Assembly: GCA_029938715.1 (NCBI GenBank)
Contig: JAOZUK010000001.1
Location: 23,912-87,911, forward strand
Direction of reading: 5' to 3'
DNA: 64,000 nucleotides
Source: Bacteroidales bacterium
GTDB taxonomy: Bacteria > Bacteroidota > Bacteroidia > Bacteroidales > GCA-2748055
Shown piece after piece: positions 39,531 to 55,139 of the stretch. The position numbers were made by a program, and so were the translations under genes. Every line of letters starts with the position of its first letter. Position 1 is the first letter of the stretch. The notes beneath the pieces are model-generated. The model was not told the DNA's origin. It did no database searches and worked only from the letters and a program-made list of their open reading frames with translations.

Positions 39531-41921
39531 ATGCTTTTTCGTACCCTATTCATAATTAGCACGTTAATTTCAACTCTGCAGCTATATGGGCAACAGGTTC
39601 AGGTAATCAGCTCTTCGGACCGGTCCGCCATTGAACATGTAGCGGTATACAATACCACCCGGGAAAGATCAGCCCTTACCGACTCCCTGGGGATGATCGA
39701 CCTGCGCATTTTCCCCATGACAGATACCATTGTCTTTCAGCATCCCTCCTTTGTAAACCGTCAATTCAGCCACCAACAAATTACCGATCAGTCCACAATT
39801 GTTCTTCACAGAAAACGGATTTTAATCGATGAGTATGTCATCTCAGCTTCGAAATCGAGGGAGAGCAAGCTGATTATTCCCAACATGGTGGATGTGATTG
39901 AAGAGAAAGAACTTAAAGAATCCACAGGGCTAACCGCTGCAGAGATTCTGGAAGGAACGGGTAACATCATGGTGCAAAAAACACAGGGAGGAGGGGGAAG
40001 TCCAATTCTTCGTGGTTTTGAGGCCAATAAGATCCTTCTTGTGCTGGATGGGGTCAGGCTGAACAACGCCATCTATCGCAACGGGCACCTGCAGAATTCC
40101 ATCACCATCGATCATGCCATTCTGAACAGAACCGAGATCATTTTCGGACCCTCATCCATTATGTATGGGAGCGATGCCCTGGGGGGAGTTATCCACTACT
40201 ATACAAAGGATCCTGAACTGGGCCGAGCCGACTCCACAAAGATGAATCTACAGGCTTATGTGCAATATGCAACAGCAGTAAAAGGGAAAACCGGTCACCT
40301 CGACTTCTCCCTGGGAAGAAAGCACTGGGGATTTCTAACCAGTGTTACCTATAAAGACCTGGGAGATATCCGTATTGGTGAACGGCGAAGCCCCTATCTG
40401 GGAGATTGGGGTAAAGTTATGCACTATGTGGACCAGGTGAATGGAGTGGATTCCACCCTGGCCAACGAAAATACACTGATCCAGAAGAATACTGGTTACA
40501 GCCAGCTTGACCTTCTACAAAAGATACGATATACACCCTCCCAGTATGTGGACTGGGTGCTCAACCTTCAGTATTCCACATCGTCGAATATCGACCGGCT
40601 CGACAAACTGAACGATTACAGTGGGGAGAACCTGAAATATGCCTCCTGGTATTATGGACCCCAGGAAAGGCTGCTTATTTCCCTGAAAAATGTTGTAAAA
40701 AAAGACAACTGGCTATTCACCAACATGACCTCCATAGTGGCCTTCCAAAATGTGGATGAAGATCGCAACTCGCGTAATTTCAGGAACGAAGAGCTACTCA
40801 CACAGCTGGAGAATGTGAAGGTGTTAAGCTTGAATGTGGACCTGCTGAAGATCTGGGGAGTCAACCATAAACTGAATTATGGGGTGGAGGTCAATCAAAA
40901 CCGGGTGGGATCTCAGGCATGGTATGAGAACATCCATACCGGGAAAAGAGATTCCGCCCAGACCCGTTACCCCGAGGGGGGCAGTGAAACCTTGAGCGCT
41001 TCAGCATATGCCAGTTACAAATGGATCTTACATAAAAAACTGGTGCTGAACGGGGGGGGCAGATACAACTGGGGCCAGTTGACCTCCCTGTTTGACAATC
41101 CTTTGCTTAATTATGACCGGATCCATATCAATCATGGGGCCCTTACAGGCAGTTTAGGACTGGTCTATAAACCATCGGACCGCTGGCAGCTAAACACCAT
41201 TCTCTCTACCGGATTCAGAAATCCCAATGTGGATGACTATGGTAAAGTAAGGGCTAAAGACGATTTCGTTATCGTTCCCAATCCTGACATCTCCCCCGAG
41301 TATACCTACAATGCAGAGCTTGGAATAAGCCGGATTGTGGAGGGTTACATAAAGATCGAGGTGGTGGGTTACTACAGCTTTCTGAAAGATGCCATTGTGC
41401 GAACCAATTACCAGTTAAATGGCGAAGACTCTCTCTTTTACGATGGCGATACCTACAAAATAACAACCAATTACAATGCAGGAGAGGCCTATATTTATGG
41501 CGCTTCACTGGGGGTGACGGCCAACCTGAATAAAAGCATCCTTCTGAAGGGAACCCTCAACTATACACGGGGCTACAATCTGACAGATGATGTACCCCTG
41601 GGGCATATCCCCCCTCTGTTCGGACGCACCTCCCTCACATACAGAAAAAGCAGATTCTTCATTGATACATATATGGTCTATCAGGGATGGAAGGATATTG
41701 AGGATTTCTCACCCTTTGGTGAAGATAATGAGGGTGAAGCCATGAAGTATGGCTTTCCTTCGTGGTGGACATTAAACATGAAAGCCGGTTTTGAAGTGCT
41801 GAAATATTTTGATCTTATGGTGGCTGTGGAAAACATCTTTGACCAGTTCTATAAACCCTATGCCTCTGGCATAAGTGCACCCGGAAGAAACTTCATTTTC
41901 ACAGCCAGGTTTACCATTTAA
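39531..41921 (+). CDS. TonB-dependent receptor (haem/haemoglobin-receptor-like class; substrate unknown)
   Basis: Plug motifs [31 protein letters not shown]; TGFRNPN; C-terminal [13 protein letters not shown]. Confidence 0.9.
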
Positions 41922-41961
41922 ACCTTTGTACAGGTCGGGCACATTTGGTATCTTTCAGGCA

Positions 41962-42639
41962 ATGCAAACAGTAAATCCAGTTATCGAAGAGGGGTGGAAA
42001 GAGATCCTGATGGATGAATTTCAATCAACCTACTTCAGTGAATTGAAGGCGTTCCTGGTGGAGGAGAAAAAGAGATACACCATCTATCCTCCTGGTAATC
42101 TTATATTTAACGCATTTCAACACACTCCCTTTGACCGGGTAAAAGCCGTTATCCTGGGACAGGATCCCTATCATGGAAAGGGCCAGGCACACGGGCTCTG
42201 CTTTTCGGTGCCCCCTGGAATTCCTGCACCACCCTCCCTGGTCAATATTTTCAAAGAGTTAAAGTCGGACCTGGGTATTCCGGTCCCCTCCCATGGCAAC
42301 CTGGTCAAGTGGGCCGACCAGGGGGTCCTTTTACTCAATGCAACACTGACCGTAAGAGACAGCCAGGCAGGATCCCACCAAAAAAAGGGCTGGGAAACCT
42401 TCACAAACCGTGTGATTGAAAATATATCCAAACATAAATCAGGAATAGTTTTTCTATTGTGGGGAAGGTACGCACAGGCCAAAGAAGCCCTTATTGATGG
42501 GAACAGGCACCTGGTCCTGAAATCGGCCCATCCCTCGCCCCTTTCCGCCTACAATGGCTTTTTCGGCTGTAAACATTTCTCCAGGACCAACGAATACCTT
42601 GAACATCAGGCTAAATCAGAAATTGATTGGACACTGTAA
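41962..42639 (+). CDS. ung: uracil-DNA glycosylase (family 1)
   Basis: [26 protein letters not shown]; ATG at 41962. Confidence 0.97.
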
Positions 42640-42644
42640 CCACT

Positions 42645-42660
42645 TTGGCACGCGATTTGT
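42645..42660 (+). promoter_or_regulatory. sigma54 (-24/-12) promoter motif TTGGCACGCGATTTGT
   Basis: Matches TGGCACG-N4-TTG; lies 5 nt after the ung stop and points into a gap with no long ORF. Confidence 0.6.
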
Positions 42661-42671
42661 ACCTATAAAAG

Positions 42672-42747
42672 TGACAGTTTATCCAATCATATTCCCTGAC
42701 AAATTCGGGGCCAGGTCCGTCTCACACAGGCGGACTTTTATTTTTTT
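42672..42747 (+). ncRNA. candidate ~75-nt sigma54-dependent small RNA
   Basis: Bounded by the sigma54 motif and an intrinsic terminator; internal hairpin CCCUGA/UCGGGG; 5' end inferred. Confidence 0.4.
42713..42747 (+). terminator. intrinsic terminator
   Basis: AGGUCCGUCU-CACAC-AGGCGGACUU 10-bp stem followed by UUAUUUUUUU. Confidence 0.8.
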
Positions 42748-42760
42748 ATCCCCTCAGGGA

Positions 42761-42872
42761 TAAGTCACCCAATTCAATATCTCCAGGTTTTTCAACCGGT
42801 GCTGAAATCCTTTTCAAATAAAGGATTAAGGCACCTACGTTTAAAAACCTTCCGATATTCTTGGGTGACTTA
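42761..42872 (-). ncRNA. rod-like structured element A (112 nt)
   Basis: Perfect 12-bp terminal IR TAAGTCACCCAA/TTGGGTGACTTA plus nested stems AATATC, AGGTTTTT, GGTGC, AATCCTTT; strand inferred from motifs shared with element C. Confidence 0.55.
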
Positions 42873-42890
42873 GAATTGAGGAGATAAAAT

Positions 42891-42943
42891 GGGGGCGTTG
42901 AGATTTGGAATACTAAGAACAGTGACTATTTTCAACGCTCCCC
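42891..42943 (+). other. hairpin B
   Basis: GGGGGCGUUGAGA pairs with UUUCAACGCUCCC (13 bp, two G-U on the plus strand). Confidence 0.5.
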
Positions 42944-42947
42944 CACC

Positions 42948-43061
42948 AAACCCTTCTAAAATTACCTGGAGTATGTGTTAGTGAGCTACCTATAATCCTT
43001 TCTGCGAAAGGATTTCAGTAGCGAACTAATATATACGGAAGGTGAACTGCTAGAAGGGTTT
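42948..43061 (+). ncRNA. rod-like structured element C (114 nt), overlapping the trpS stop codon in antisense
   Basis: 11-bp terminal IR AAACCCTTCTA/TAGAAGGGTTT; GGA/GGA and GA/GA internal loops; 12-bp stem with G-U pairs on the plus strand; apical AATCCTTTC/GAAAGGATT. Confidence 0.55.
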
Positions 43062-44039
43062 ATACCCTATTATTTCGCGGACTTCCCGAACGGTTTTGGA
43101 TGCACTCTCGCGTGCCTTTTCTGCACCCATTTTCACTACCTTTCTCAAATACTCGGAGTCATTATGGATGTCATTGATCCGTTCACGGATGGGAGTGGTG
43201 AAGTTGATTACATCCTCGGCCAGCTGTTTTTTCAGGTCCCCATAGCGTATGGAGCAGTTGTTGTAATTGTCGCGGAAATGCTGCACGGTATCGGGAGTGG
43301 AAAGCAAATCAAGAAGATAGAAGAGGTTGGCAATGGGTTCTGTCATGGGAGAATTGGGCTCCTGTGGCCCTGCATCGGTCACCGCGCGCATTACCTTTTT
43401 CCTGATCACTGAAGGTTCATCTGACAGATAGATCCCGTTTCCCTCACTTTTACCCATCTTCCCGGTTCCATCCAGACCGGGGACTTTTACCAGTTTCTCT
43501 CCAAAATTGTAAGGCTCGGGCAACGTAAAATACTCCACTCCGTACATGTGATTAAAACGCCTGGCAAACTTGCGGGCCATCTCCAGGTTCTGCTCCTGAT
43601 CCTTTCCCACCGGAACCTTATCTGCATTGTGAATGATGATATCGGCACACATCAGAACCGGATAGGTCAGAAGCCCTGCATTGATATTTTCCGGCTGTTT
43701 CCTGATCTTATCCTTGAAAGTGGTGGTGCGCTCCAGCTCACCCACATAGGCATTCATATTCAGCAATAGATAGAGCTCGGAGATCTCGGGCACATCACTT
43801 TGAATGTAAAGCGTGGCCACCTCGGGGTCCAGTCCCGCTGCAAGGTATTCTGAAATTACGGTACGAATGTTTTTATGAAGATTCTCGGGTGTGGGGTGTG
43901 TGGTCAGTGCATGATAATCAGCAACAAAAAAGTAACACCTGTTTTCGTGCTGCATCTTTACAAAATTCTTAACCGCTCCAAAATAGTTGCCCAGGTGAAG
44001 GTTTCCGGTCGACCTGATTCCGCTTAATACTGTGTCCAT
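43050..44039 (-). CDS. trpS: tryptophan--tRNA ligase
   Basis: SGIRSTGNLHLGNY, YPVLMCADI, VPVGKDQEQ, KMGKS. Confidence 0.98.
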   Translation of the reverse strand: MDTVLSGIRSTGNLHLGNYFGAVKNFVKMQHENRCYFFVADYHALTTHPTPENLHKNIRTVISEYLAAGLDPEVATLYIQSDVPEISELYLLLNMNAYVGELERTTTFKDKIRKQPENINAGLLTYPVLMCADIIIHNADKVPVGKDQEQNLEMARKFARRFNHMYGVEYFTLPEPYNFGEKLVKVPGLDGTGKMGKSEGNGIYLSDEPSVIRKKVMRAVTDAGPQEPNSPMTEPIANLFYLLDLLSTPDTVQHFRDNYNNCSIRYGDLKKQLAEDVINFTTPIRERINDIHNDSEYLRKVVKMGAEKARESASKTVREVREIIGYKPF

Positions 44040-53687: not shown

Positions 53688-55139
53688 CTATAGTTCTTTT
53701 CGCAACCGGGCCACGGGTAGTCCCAACTGCTCCCGGTACTTAGCCACTGTTCTTCTGGCGATGTGGTACCCCTTTTCATTTAGGATGGCCGACAGTCTGT
53801 CATCAGTAAGTGGTTTCCTTTTATCCTCACTTTCGATGCAGTCCTGAAGGATCTTCTTGATCTCCCTGGTCGATACCTCCTCACCACTTTCGGTTTGCAT
53901 TCCTTCCGAAAAAAAATACTTTAAAGGATAGATGCCAAAATGGGTCTGGATATACTTGCTGTTAGCCACCCTTGAAATTGTGGAAATATCCAGATCTGTC
54001 ATATCAGCAATGTCCTTTAAAATCATAGGTCGCATCCGGATTTCATCTCCCTCAAAGAAATAGGCCTCCTGGTATTCGAGGATGGCATTCATGGTAAGCA
54101 ACATGGTGTTCTGTCGCTGCCTGATGGCATCTATGAACCACTTGGCCGAATCAAGTTTCTGCTTCACAAAAGTGATGGCATCCTTTTCATCCTTGCTGGC
54201 TGAAGCTTTGTTGGCGCTGTAGCTTTCAAACATATCCGAGTAAGTTCTGCTCAGCCTCAATTCGGGAACATTGTTTGAGTTGAGATAGAGCTGCAGAACT
54301 CCTTCATTCTCCTCAAGGATAAAATCAGGTACAATGTGATGAAAAGACTTGGCCTGGGAGTCTCCCATAGCCCCTCCAGGTTTGGGATTGAGCCGCAGGA
54401 TCTCTTCCAGGGCCACCTTTAACTCCTCCTCTTTAATATTGAGCCTATGGATGATTTTATTGTAATGCTTATTTGTAAACTCATCGAAATGATTCTTGAG
54501 AATCTTATGGGCCATTAAGATAACTGGGTTTTCAAGGTCCTTCCTCTCAATCTGAAGCAGAAGGCATTCCTGCAGGTTCCGAGCACCAATACCGGCCGGA
54601 TCAAATTTCTGGATAACCATAAGTACAGCGTGCAGTGACTCATAGGAGGCTTCCTGTCCTGTGGAAAAAGCCAGGTCATCAGCAATGGCTTCCAAATCCC
54701 TTCGAAGATAACCGTCGTCATCAATATTCCCGAGAATATATTCAGCCAGAATCTCCTCCTCCTCGTTTAGGTTCCTCAAGCCAAGCTGGCTTTTCAATTG
54801 CTCCCTGAAAGTACTTCCCAGTGAAAAAGGAATCTCTTCACGCCTATCGTCTGTCGAATAGTTCTGCGCATTGAAGCGGTAACTGGGGATATCATCATCC
54901 TGCATATAGTCCTCAAGGGAGAACTCATCTTGTTGATCCCCGGTCTGTTCTTCCTTTGCATCCTCCTGTTCTTCGAAGGAGCCCTCTTCATTTCCCTCCT
55001 CCAGAACAGGATTCTCCTCAAGTTCCTTTTTAATTCTTTGCTCCAGCTGTATGGCCGGAATCTCAAGCAGCTTGATCATTTGGATCTGCTGCGGAGACAG
55101 TTTTTGAAGTAATTTTTGCTGAAGCCTCTGTTTAAGCAT
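53688..55139 (-). CDS. rpoN: RNA polymerase sigma54 factor
   Basis: Gln-rich region I, LEENP.LE, DPAGIGAR.LQECL, STISR, RpoN box ARRTVAKYRE. Confidence 0.98.
   Translation of the reverse strand: MLKQRLQQKLLQKLSPQQIQMIKLLEIPAIQLEQRIKKELEENPVLEEGNEEGSFEEQEDAKEEQTGDQQDEFSLEDYMQDDDIPSYRFNAQNYSTDDRREEIPFSLGSTFREQLKSQLGLRNLNEEEEILAEYILGNIDDDGYLRRDLEAIADDLAFSTGQEASYESLHAVLMVIQKFDPAGIGARNLQECLLLQIERKDLENPVILMAHKILKNHFDEFTNKHYNKIIHRLNIKEEELKVALEEILRLNPKPGGAMGDSQAKSFHHIVPDFILEENEGVLQLYLNSNNVPELRLSRTYSDMFESYSANKASASKDEKDAITFVKQKLDSAKWFIDAIRQRQNTMLLTMNAILEYQEAYFFEGDEIRMRPMILKDIADMTDLDISTISRVANSKYIQTHFGIYPLKYFFSEGMQTESGEEVSTREIKKILQDCIESEDKRKPLTDDRLSAILNEKGYHIARRTVAKYREQLGLPVARLRKEL

Follow-up and report, generated by a model that had tools for sequence, protein, structure and literature searches.

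Elements A and C, two opposed rod-like hairpins in the genome of an uncultured Bacteroidales lineage represented by metagenome-assembled genomes, are two copies of a genus-wide interspersed palindromic repeat family. The family falls within the known class of interspersed palindromic repeats and apparently has not been described so far; full-text literature searches aimed at this question returned no description of such a repeat family in Bacteroidota. On balance, we lean towards reading it as a REP/BIME-like repeat that has spread non-autonomously and whose hairpin would shield the 3′ end of the adjacent gene from incoming transcription.

The features of the locus are given below in the coordinates of the window, that is, the whole 64-kb stretch of DNA that was analysed. 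Scores refer to two covariance models: R1, built on alignment A2 (ten sequences), and R2, built from 99 copies; the core takes up 69–70 positions in these models.

41875–42639, plus strand: uracil-DNA glycosylase-family gene (ung), assigned with Pfam.
42761–42872, minus strand: element A, a complete rod-like hairpin and family copy, defined by its fold and inverted repeats I1, I2 and I5.
42782–42784, minus strand (TCC on the plus strand): 3′-side GGA of the GGA/GGA internal loop of A, from sequence and fold.
42783–42852, minus strand: core of A (lower stem, 5-bp G-NNN-C stem GGUGC/GCACC, CUU/UCA loop, apical hairpin); R1 66.0 bits; R2 62.0 bits, E 2.9e-15.
42851–42853, minus strand (TCC on the plus strand): 5′-side GGA of the GGA/GGA internal loop of A, from sequence and fold.
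42891–42942, minus strand: hairpin B, a G+C-rich stem followed by AUUUUAU; unmatched by R2 and hence outside the family.
42948–43061, plus strand: element C, a complete rod-like hairpin and family copy, defined by its fold and inverted repeat I7 (11 nt, 100% complementary).
42968–42970, plus strand: 5′-side GGA of the GGA/GGA internal loop of C, from sequence and fold.
42969–43038, plus strand: core of C (GUAUGUGUUAGU/ACUAAUAUAUAC with two G:U pairs, tandem GA/GA, GCUAC/GUAGC, CUAU/UCA, apical AAUCCUUUC-UGC-GAAAGGAUU); R1 69.0 bits; R2 66.9 bits, E 8.8e-17.
43037–43039, plus strand: 3′-side GGA of the GGA/GGA internal loop of C, from sequence and fold.
43050–44039, minus strand: trpS (class-I tRNA synthetase, W/Y family; Pfam tRNA-synt_1b), from its open reading frame and Pfam.

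The stretch from A to C is thus placed between convergent genes, with the ung side on the plus strand and the trpS side on the minus strand.

The sequence of 42761–43061 is as the preliminary description had it: two opposed rods with common loop modules and differing stems. On the minus strand, the 5′ half of A runs through the outer stem, GAA:G, AAUAUC, GGA, AGGUUUUU, AAC-GUA, GGUGC, CUU and AAUCCUUU to the loop, and its 3′ half returns through AAAGGAUU, UCA, GCACC, G-GUU, AAAAACCU, GGA and GAUAUU to the outer stem. The plus strand of C presents ACCU-GGA-G ... C-GGA-AGGU, the stem GCUAC/GUAGC, the loop CUAU...UCA and the apical AAUCCUUUC/GAAAGGAUU. The full hairpins measure 112 nt (A) and 114 nt (C), and the imperfect inverted repeat of A extends over 42744–42889, with 29-nt arms that are 83% complementary. 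Minimum-energy folds of both elements are single rods, at −51.2 kcal/mol (z −7.87) on the minus and −54.5 (z −8.35) on the plus strand of A, and at −54.7 kcal/mol (z −9.59) on the plus and −46.3 (z −7.04) on the minus strand of C; none of 200 dinucleotide shuffles folded as well in any of these four cases. The apical module common to both, AATCCTTT-N(2-10)-AAAGGATT, has two occurrences in the window, where 100 shuffles predict 0.00, and in its exact form three in the whole 6.2-Mb genome. The third of these copies (contig C851) has GGCAC/GUGCC for the GGUGC/GCACC of A, a difference of two compensated pairs. An R2 scan of the window returned A and C as the sole matches.

A location between convergent genes is what would be expected of ordinary intrinsic terminators, and chance palindromes might also come to lie there; we nevertheless regard this explanation as highly improbable. 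Both elements have stems of 40–50 bp with conserved internal loops, at least 261 related copies and z values of −7 to −9.6, and a simple terminator scan calls neither of them, its calls being 42713–42737 and a weak one at 43055–43068. The 3′ flanks of copies show no T enrichment and a U-tract after the hairpin is not the rule on either strand, so the element is not a canonical intrinsic terminator. The likely terminator of trpS is hairpin B on its minus strand, judging from its sequence (fold −23.6, z −4.68, on the plus strand; −19.5, z −2.56, on the minus strand); the scan missed it because its loop is long (scan loop limit 8).

Known RNA families did not account for the elements either. A cmscan of 42000–43800 on both strands against 4227 Rfam 15 families, with E up to 10, gave none at E = 0.1. 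The matches listed were MIR7993 (24.1 bits; gathering threshold 100), DGCR5 (19; 50) and MIR1120 (17.5; 86), that is, two plant miRNA precursors and one human lncRNA, all far under gathering. The apical module had earlier been said to resemble Flavo-1 loosely, a likeness that was not upheld, as this search returned no Flavo-1 row at E up to 10.

At the trpS locus, C is positioned between the stop codon of the gene (43050–43052) and hairpin B, and its outermost 3′ arm (43051–43061) overlaps the stop codon and the final three codons. Orthologues of C are found in the related genomes G020, G001, G005 and G024, and the outer stem alone is left behind trpS in G009. Among trpS loci of named records, 2 of 80 have the element, and these are possibly the same genomes as those relatives. 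The outermost stem is formed, in the window as well as in G020, between an inverted upstream copy and the end of trpS (its three final codons and some of the stop codon), and the two genomes differ here in a compensated manner (AAACCCUUCUA/UAGAAGGGUUU in the window versus AAACCAUUCUA/UAGAAUGGUUU in G020), the change falling at a synonymous proline site of trpS. As a family rule, pairing of the outer stem with the stop-codon region of the neighbour was rejected: at least 10 of 12 positions match in just 4 of 42 copies (1.0 expected), two of these copies being the window copy and its G020 orthologue, which makes this a locus-specific trait. Part of the stretch occurs in 20 public runs, one of them an RNA library. 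That run holds a single contig, at 42580–42763, with a fold-back joint at the terminator hairpin and with A and C uncovered; it is uninformative on expression because the runs are assembled contigs.

Sequence searches alone overlook the family: BLAST of A, B and C against their own genome gave no further long match, and a DNA search with A gave matches in 5 of the 48 other genomes of the genus. Regular-expression descriptors of the core showed no enrichment in the genome over the reversed genome (25 vs 78, 690 vs 1200 and 143 vs 255 raw matches). Descriptor scans combined with a long-hairpin filter and inspection by eye led to the recognition of five more copies, and a covariance model then replaced the descriptors. 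With R1, the own genome yields 10 matches (E ≤ 1), and the 49 genomes of the genus, with 103 candidates per genome scored, yield at least 261 (E ≤ 0.001) spread over 40 of them, bearing out the earlier suggestion that A and C have further relatives. The number of copies per genome ranges from 0 to at least 43. When R2 was run on 149 genomes from other genera of the order, with 33 candidates scored per genome, two gave matches.

Each copy is one long hairpin in which the architecture is fixed and the stem sequence largely free. The unit comprises a core of about 70 nt, or 90–130 nt with the outer stems. From the outside inward, an outer stem is followed by a G-R-A / G-R-A purine internal loop, and a stem of 10–12 bp. 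Beyond a small loop (GA/GA or GUA/G) come the 5-bp stem G-NNN-C and an asymmetric loop, CCU(A)UA / UUNA, and then the apical hairpin, which is most often capped by a C-GNA-G triloop. In the core consensus, A-G precedes and C-C-U follows the 5′ arm of the 5-bp stem, and the 3′ side has U-U-N-A-G ... C-G; the favoured strand accordingly reads 5′-AG-NNN-CCU ... UUNAG-N′N′N′-CG-3′. The GGA/GGA loop first noticed in A and C is family-wide in the form G-R-A / G-R-A, its positions being kept in 62–84% of 99 copies (5′ side G 63, R 78, A 77; 3′ side G 82, R 84, A 62). The end pairs of the 5-bp stem stay G-C and C-G, and its middle pairs take 4–5 pair types, up to four of them already in the ten sequences of A2.

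Since the alignments were fitted to the model, the following figures for pairing, covariation and G:U are flattered: across 98 distinct copies, 84.7% of cells hold a pair, against 33.4–50.5% with the partners slid by 1–3 columns; the covariation score is 0.673 against 0.068–0.137 slid, with 23 of 24 pairs changed on both sides; an earlier 57-row set gave 83.1% and 0.630; and G:U plus U:G number 100 against 19 A:C plus C:A in 57 distinct rows. Compensated changes also separate orthologous copies, as in GGUGC/GCACC versus GUUGC/GCAAC at the EF-G locus. The covariance model on copies from the genus therefore supports a modular structured family with conserved loops and covarying stems, as the preliminary description had proposed. 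The two strands are not equivalent in this respect, the model strand folding better in 68 of 82 distinct copies by a mean of 4.8 kcal/mol. C-to-T changes are a known mutation bias of the coding or leading strand. Beside co-directional genes this bias predicts the opposite asymmetry, and we therefore read the strand asymmetry as selection favouring one strand for its structure.

Such features could also belong to a host-encoded structured RNA motif, a cis-regulatory element or protein platform recruited repeatedly and kept by RNA selection, with the G-R-A/G-R-A and CCUAUA/UUCA loops as putative protein-binding sites. The covariation and G:U excess are comparable to those of curated RNA families, loops are conserved and stems variable, and copies persist at orthologous loci beside housekeeping genes. 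We still find this origin unlikely. The −7 motif of Bacteroidetes promoters is not enriched upstream of copies (10 versus 9 on the other strand), and 20 of 96 copies have a T6+ run immediately ahead of them on the model strand; these runs suggest that an ordinary terminator often precedes the element, so that little RNA may reach it. Arrays and tandem amplification of a 67-nt unit with the apical module are the behaviour of a repeat, and the elements are freely lost by deletion in close relatives. Their triloops, too, are DNA-like.

Among the apical loops of 98 copies, 67 are triloops and 42 have the form C-GNA-G, with one GNRA and no UNCG loop; the type-2 apical module contains GCGAAGC itself. 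According to one study, mini-hairpins of the GCGNAGC type have a far higher stability as DNA than as RNA, and the loops preferred by functional RNAs are GNRA and UNCG (PMC13037366); another presents the GCGNAGC mini-hairpin as a DNA-stability motif (PMC3201870). The abundance of C-GNA-G, taken with this stability, therefore points to single-stranded DNA rather than RNA as the folded form. These loops (42 of 98, against one GNRA and none UNCG) also speak for a purely selfish, REPIN-like element of single-stranded DNA, the favoured strand of which would be handled by an HUH-type or other single-strand-specific enzyme during copying. The hairpin, the tolerance of G:T and the GNA triloops would then serve a DNA intermediate, and the sites at gene ends would be tolerated insertions. 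We consider this a genuine possibility, although we would not expect it to prove correct.

Repeat behaviour is most evident in genome G043, where two sub-types form BIME-like arrays with orientation alternating every 90–100 nt (32 matches on 14 short loci, 14 kb in total), and where five near-identical copies share sharply defined ends, lie in unrelated flanking sequence and show no visible duplication of the target. Genome G056 carries nine tandem repeats of a 67-nt unit that includes the type-2 apical module. Apical modules have been swapped between copies, the G020 orthologue of A carrying the type-2 apex seen at the EF-G locus of the window genome. The alternating arrays and sharp-ended copies of G043, a copy number of 0 to 43 within one genus and this exchange of modules are all in keeping with a selfish single-stranded-DNA element. 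At the three loci compared between the own genome and G020, the differences are due to deletions within copies or to their decay rather than to excision; in the one case that is clean, just 3′ remnants are left in the own genome where G020 has full copies. No clean empty site was found.

A mobilising enzyme for such an element did not emerge from the genomes searched. The preliminary description had pointed to a RAYT or IS200-like nuclease near other copies, an expectation that failed: in a search of the own genome and five relatives (6 of the 49 genomes of the genus) for Y1_Tnp (PF01797), none of the 17 loci examined had a model match (E ≤ 1) within about 1.5 kb. In the own genome the Y1_Tnp matches are incomplete or broken, and G011 has no Y1_Tnp match despite at least 15 copies of the repeat. 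The proteins present in G020, G043 and G045 are IS200/IS605 TnpA of 130–152 aa, accompanied by tnpB in the G020 element of about 1.7 kb. The ends of that element were considered as a source of the repeat and rejected, as they are unlike the family. Against a selfish element stand also the orthologous copies kept across species with compensated changes, the orientation of copies, which, unlike that of lagging-strand-targeting elements, is unrelated to GC skew (14 of 27) or gene-strand majority (14 of 27), and the head-to-head rule described below, which demands an additional assumption.

Placement was analysed for 99 distinct copies (alignments A4 and A5, with partial matches below 50 nt and identical rows removed), using crude calls of open reading frames of at least 110 aa. 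Among these copies, which are not independent because several are orthologues, 89 are intergenic, and the 85 with both neighbours called lie in 49 convergent, 34 tandem and 2 divergent gaps. The baseline for gaps of at least 90 nt, from 40 large contigs of the own genome with the same caller, is 10% convergent, 52% tandem and 38% divergent. Convergent gaps are thus preferred and divergent ones avoided, and together with the alternating units of G043 this agrees with the early comparison to REP-like hairpins. Neighbouring genes with Pfam matches include trpS, EF-G, FtsZ, AdoHcy hydrolase, Glu dehydrogenase, aldehyde dehydrogenase, Dxs and PurL; they are typically core or housekeeping genes.

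The 3′ side of the element is the nearer to its gene in 35 of the 49 convergent gaps, tandem gaps have 21 antisense against 13 sense copies, and adjacent copies outside G043 are head-to-head in 10 cases (6 distinct loci), tandem in 3 and tail-to-tail in none. It follows that the favoured strand is more often than not antisense to the gene closest to it, and A (minus) and C (plus) conform to this orientation. The bias is moderate after discounting symmetric convergent contexts. A convergent downstream neighbour in 73 of 88 copies was discarded as a measure of orientation, since convergent gaps are symmetric and the figure overstates the rule. A replication-linked orientation was likewise rejected (GC skew positive in 14 of 27, GC3 skew in 13 of 27, local coding-strand majority in 14 of 27). 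The preliminary description had proposed 3′-end stabilisers for the two convergent transcripts, which is half right: each gene's own mRNA would contain a hairpin, but only as the weaker complement, because the better-folding strand is antisense to the adjoining gene.

Some head-to-head pairs enclose variable content. The ung–trpS pair encloses 118 nt in the window, 2.5 kb in G020 (an outer-membrane barrel and a sulfatase) and 4.5 kb in G001 (an oxidoreductase, a 3-keto-disaccharide hydrolase and DUF4838), and the pair at the Dxs locus encloses 82 or 1054 nt. This could suggest attC-like recombination sites bracketing a slot for exchangeable genes, in line with the one-strand fold, the position at gene ends and the conservation of structure over sequence. 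The pairs are inverted, however, the boxes of attC are missing from the family consensus, most copies are single and beside core genes, and convergent gaps commonly receive new genes anyway; we therefore judge recombination sites very improbable.

Returning to the reading that we prefer, a repeat whose hairpin protects gene ends, we propose the following sequence of events. The family would have spread as a non-autonomous element, as its copy number of 0 to at least 43, the sharp-ended sub-family without target duplication and the alternating arrays suggest, and most copies would by now be old, inherited vertically and decaying via internal deletion. The favoured strand would be the one made by transcription running to the 3′ end of the neighbouring gene, which is why we propose a barrier or processing site. 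The hairpin would arise in incoming convergent or read-through RNA and so protect the neighbouring gene, in many cases a housekeeping one, at its 3′ end; transcribed as part of that gene's own 3′ UTR, the element would form a hairpin of lower stability. For the window this would mean that C protects trpS from plus-strand read-through and that A protects ung and the conserved small-RNA candidate from minus-strand read-through. Three observations argue against this barrier model, namely the triloops of DNA type, the lack of U-tracts and the terminator-like T-runs ahead of 20 of 96 copies; they keep the selfish single-stranded-DNA element a near competitor.

More speculatively, the element may be functional rather than junk, a strand-specific 3′-end guard that acts as RNA or as extruded single-stranded DNA, is placed head-to-head between convergent genes and would insulate each housekeeping gene against transcription arriving from the other side. 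The interval between two guards might then form an insulated slot for gene gain and loss, as at the ung–trpS and Dxs loci, and the G-R-A/G-R-A and CCUAUA/UUCA loops might bind a Bacteroidales factor. We put this forward tentatively, and in its entirety it is rather doubtful.

The family would provide the Bacteroidota with a counterpart to REP/BIME or ERIC repeats, none having been found in the literature searched. Its rules are unusually clear: the loops are fixed and the stems free, a single strand is favoured, and copies are placed head-to-head where core genes end. In the six genomes searched, it is found without the RAYT transposase that accounts for REPs elsewhere. If the guard function is true, the family would represent a new way of handling convergent transcription in a phylum with poorly known termination and RNA biology; if the selfish reading is true, it points to a yet-unseen mobilising enzyme. 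The R2 model, with its 99 copies, is usable as an annotation tool for these metagenome-assembled genomes.

Among known systems, the closest likeness is to REP and BIME sequences such as those of E. coli. According to PMC3733652, these are extragenic stem-loop palindromes located mainly between convergent or unidirectional open reading frames; REP, BIME and REPIN sequences with RAYT transposases are described from Enterobacteria, Pseudomonas and Stenotrophomonas in PMC3733652, PMC2817692 and PMC3337134. The present family resembles them in being extragenic and palindromic, in forming stem-loops downstream of coding regions in convergent or unidirectional gaps, and in its closely spaced opposite units, alternating arrays, variable copy number and single-strand structure. 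It differs in the size of the unit (70–130 nt against 20–40 bp for REP), in low copy number (1–43 found per genome), in far greater sequence divergence with covarying stems, and in that no RAYT was found in the six genomes examined. A conserved GTAG or CGTC tag is also lacking, the family consensus before the 5-bp stem being R-A-G; CGUAG precedes this stem in A and a few relatives, and the consensus there is A-G with a variable preceding base.

Integron attC sites are recognised as a folded single strand, with structure mattering over sequence; they follow stop codons, and the strand that folds is antisense to the gene. The family shares with them the single-strand fold, structure kept over sequence, the position at gene ends and the strand antisense to the neighbour. 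Unlike attC sites, it has no R″/R′ boxes in its consensus, A alone carrying AAAC...GGUUG in this comparison, its pairs are inverted rather than direct, and its neighbours are core genes. The apical C-GNA-G of 42 of 98 copies is in turn the point of likeness to DNA mini-hairpins of the GCGNAGC type and d(GNA) triloops. Known GCGNAGC hairpins are isolated units of 7–8 nt at single-strand origins of replication or transcription, whereas here C-GNA-G caps a 100-nt rod within a chromosomal repeat.

ERIC/IRU and Correia (NEMIS) elements are palindromic intergenic repeats or MITEs of 100–170 bp that are thought to act on mRNA. The family is of the same size class, and like them it is a long imperfect palindrome folding as one rod, intergenic and found in either orientation. 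As a point of difference, terminal inverted repeats accompanied by target duplication were not found, the five sharp-ended copies of G043 showing no visible duplication, nor was an insertion sequence related to the family, the IS200/IS605 element of G020 being the one examined. To our knowledge, conserved purine internal loops and GNA triloops do not occur in the ERIC and Correia families. Repeats of these types are reviewed in PMC2229807 and PMC10969869. By analogy, the family to which A and C belong may be regarded as a Bacteroidales counterpart of REP/BIME- or ERIC-type repeats.

The interval bounded by the orthologues of A and C, two copies of the palindromic hairpin repeat family between convergent ung and trpS, is a gene slot of variable content, as compared in the window and in four genomes of the same genus:

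Window: nothing but hairpin B, a hairpin outside the family
G020, locus L031 1124–3387: outer-membrane barrel and sulfatase
G001, locus L032 1462–5745: oxidoreductase, 3-keto-disaccharide hydrolase and DUF4838
G005, locus L033 1109–3753: TPR protein and ORF6N
G011, locus L034 1087–3396: DUF4838

A second enclosing pair is found at the Dxs locus, where 82 or 1054 nt lie between family copies.

Several family copies, otherwise unrelated to each other and originating from different genomes, carry an extra palindrome of ~18 nt of the GAGCT-YGYRA-AGCTC kind, nested in their apical part, which may represent a second, smaller inserted module:

L003 555–575 (own contig C851)
L030 (G012)
L114 and L033 (trpS-linked copy)

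In genome G056, a 67-nt unit including the type-2 apical module (one of the family's apical hairpin types) with GCGAAGC is repeated nine times in tandem (L077 1605–2185). A CRISPR array was ruled out for these repeats, as unique spacers are absent.

Genome G020 also possesses a 1.7-kb IS200/IS605-type element in four copies, ~98% identical, encoding a 130-aa tnpA and, on the opposite strand, a 408-aa tnpB-like ORF:

L101, L105, L108 and L110, positions 208–1923: tnpA and tnpB-like ORF

In the own genome, Y1_Tnp is represented only by a frame with an internal TAG and by fragments.

The region behind ung contains a conserved stretch (79–92% identity in 23 of 24 other genomes of the genus):

42644–42752: whole stretch with the small-RNA candidate, directly 3′ of the ung stop codon
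42646–42660: promoter-like site, an invariant motif in the aligned genomes
42713–42747: terminator, a hairpin with a T-run

At its upstream end TGGCAC-N5-TTG(Y) is invariant in 18 aligned genomes. Next comes a segment reading GACAGTTCATCC...ATCATA, which is also invariant and stays unpaired; behind it lie a small hairpin and the terminator with its T-run. An Rfam scan of 42000–43800 returned no match for the candidate. Its terminator hairpin (42708–42753) was observed, in two DNA runs, on several short contigs with differing flanks; therefore, the 3′ module of the candidate may exist elsewhere, at further loci or in relatives of this organism.

The only Sigma54_DBD match in the whole genome falls within the same 64-kb window, ~11 kb from the promoter-like site:

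53697–54170 (G000:C354:77608–78081), minus strand: rpoN, Sigma54_DBD match in a 484-aa open frame

The stretch 42644–42752 appears to carry an RpoN-dependent small RNA of ~78 nt, its TGGCAC-N5-TTG(Y) motif agreeing with the sigma-54 −24/−12 consensus.
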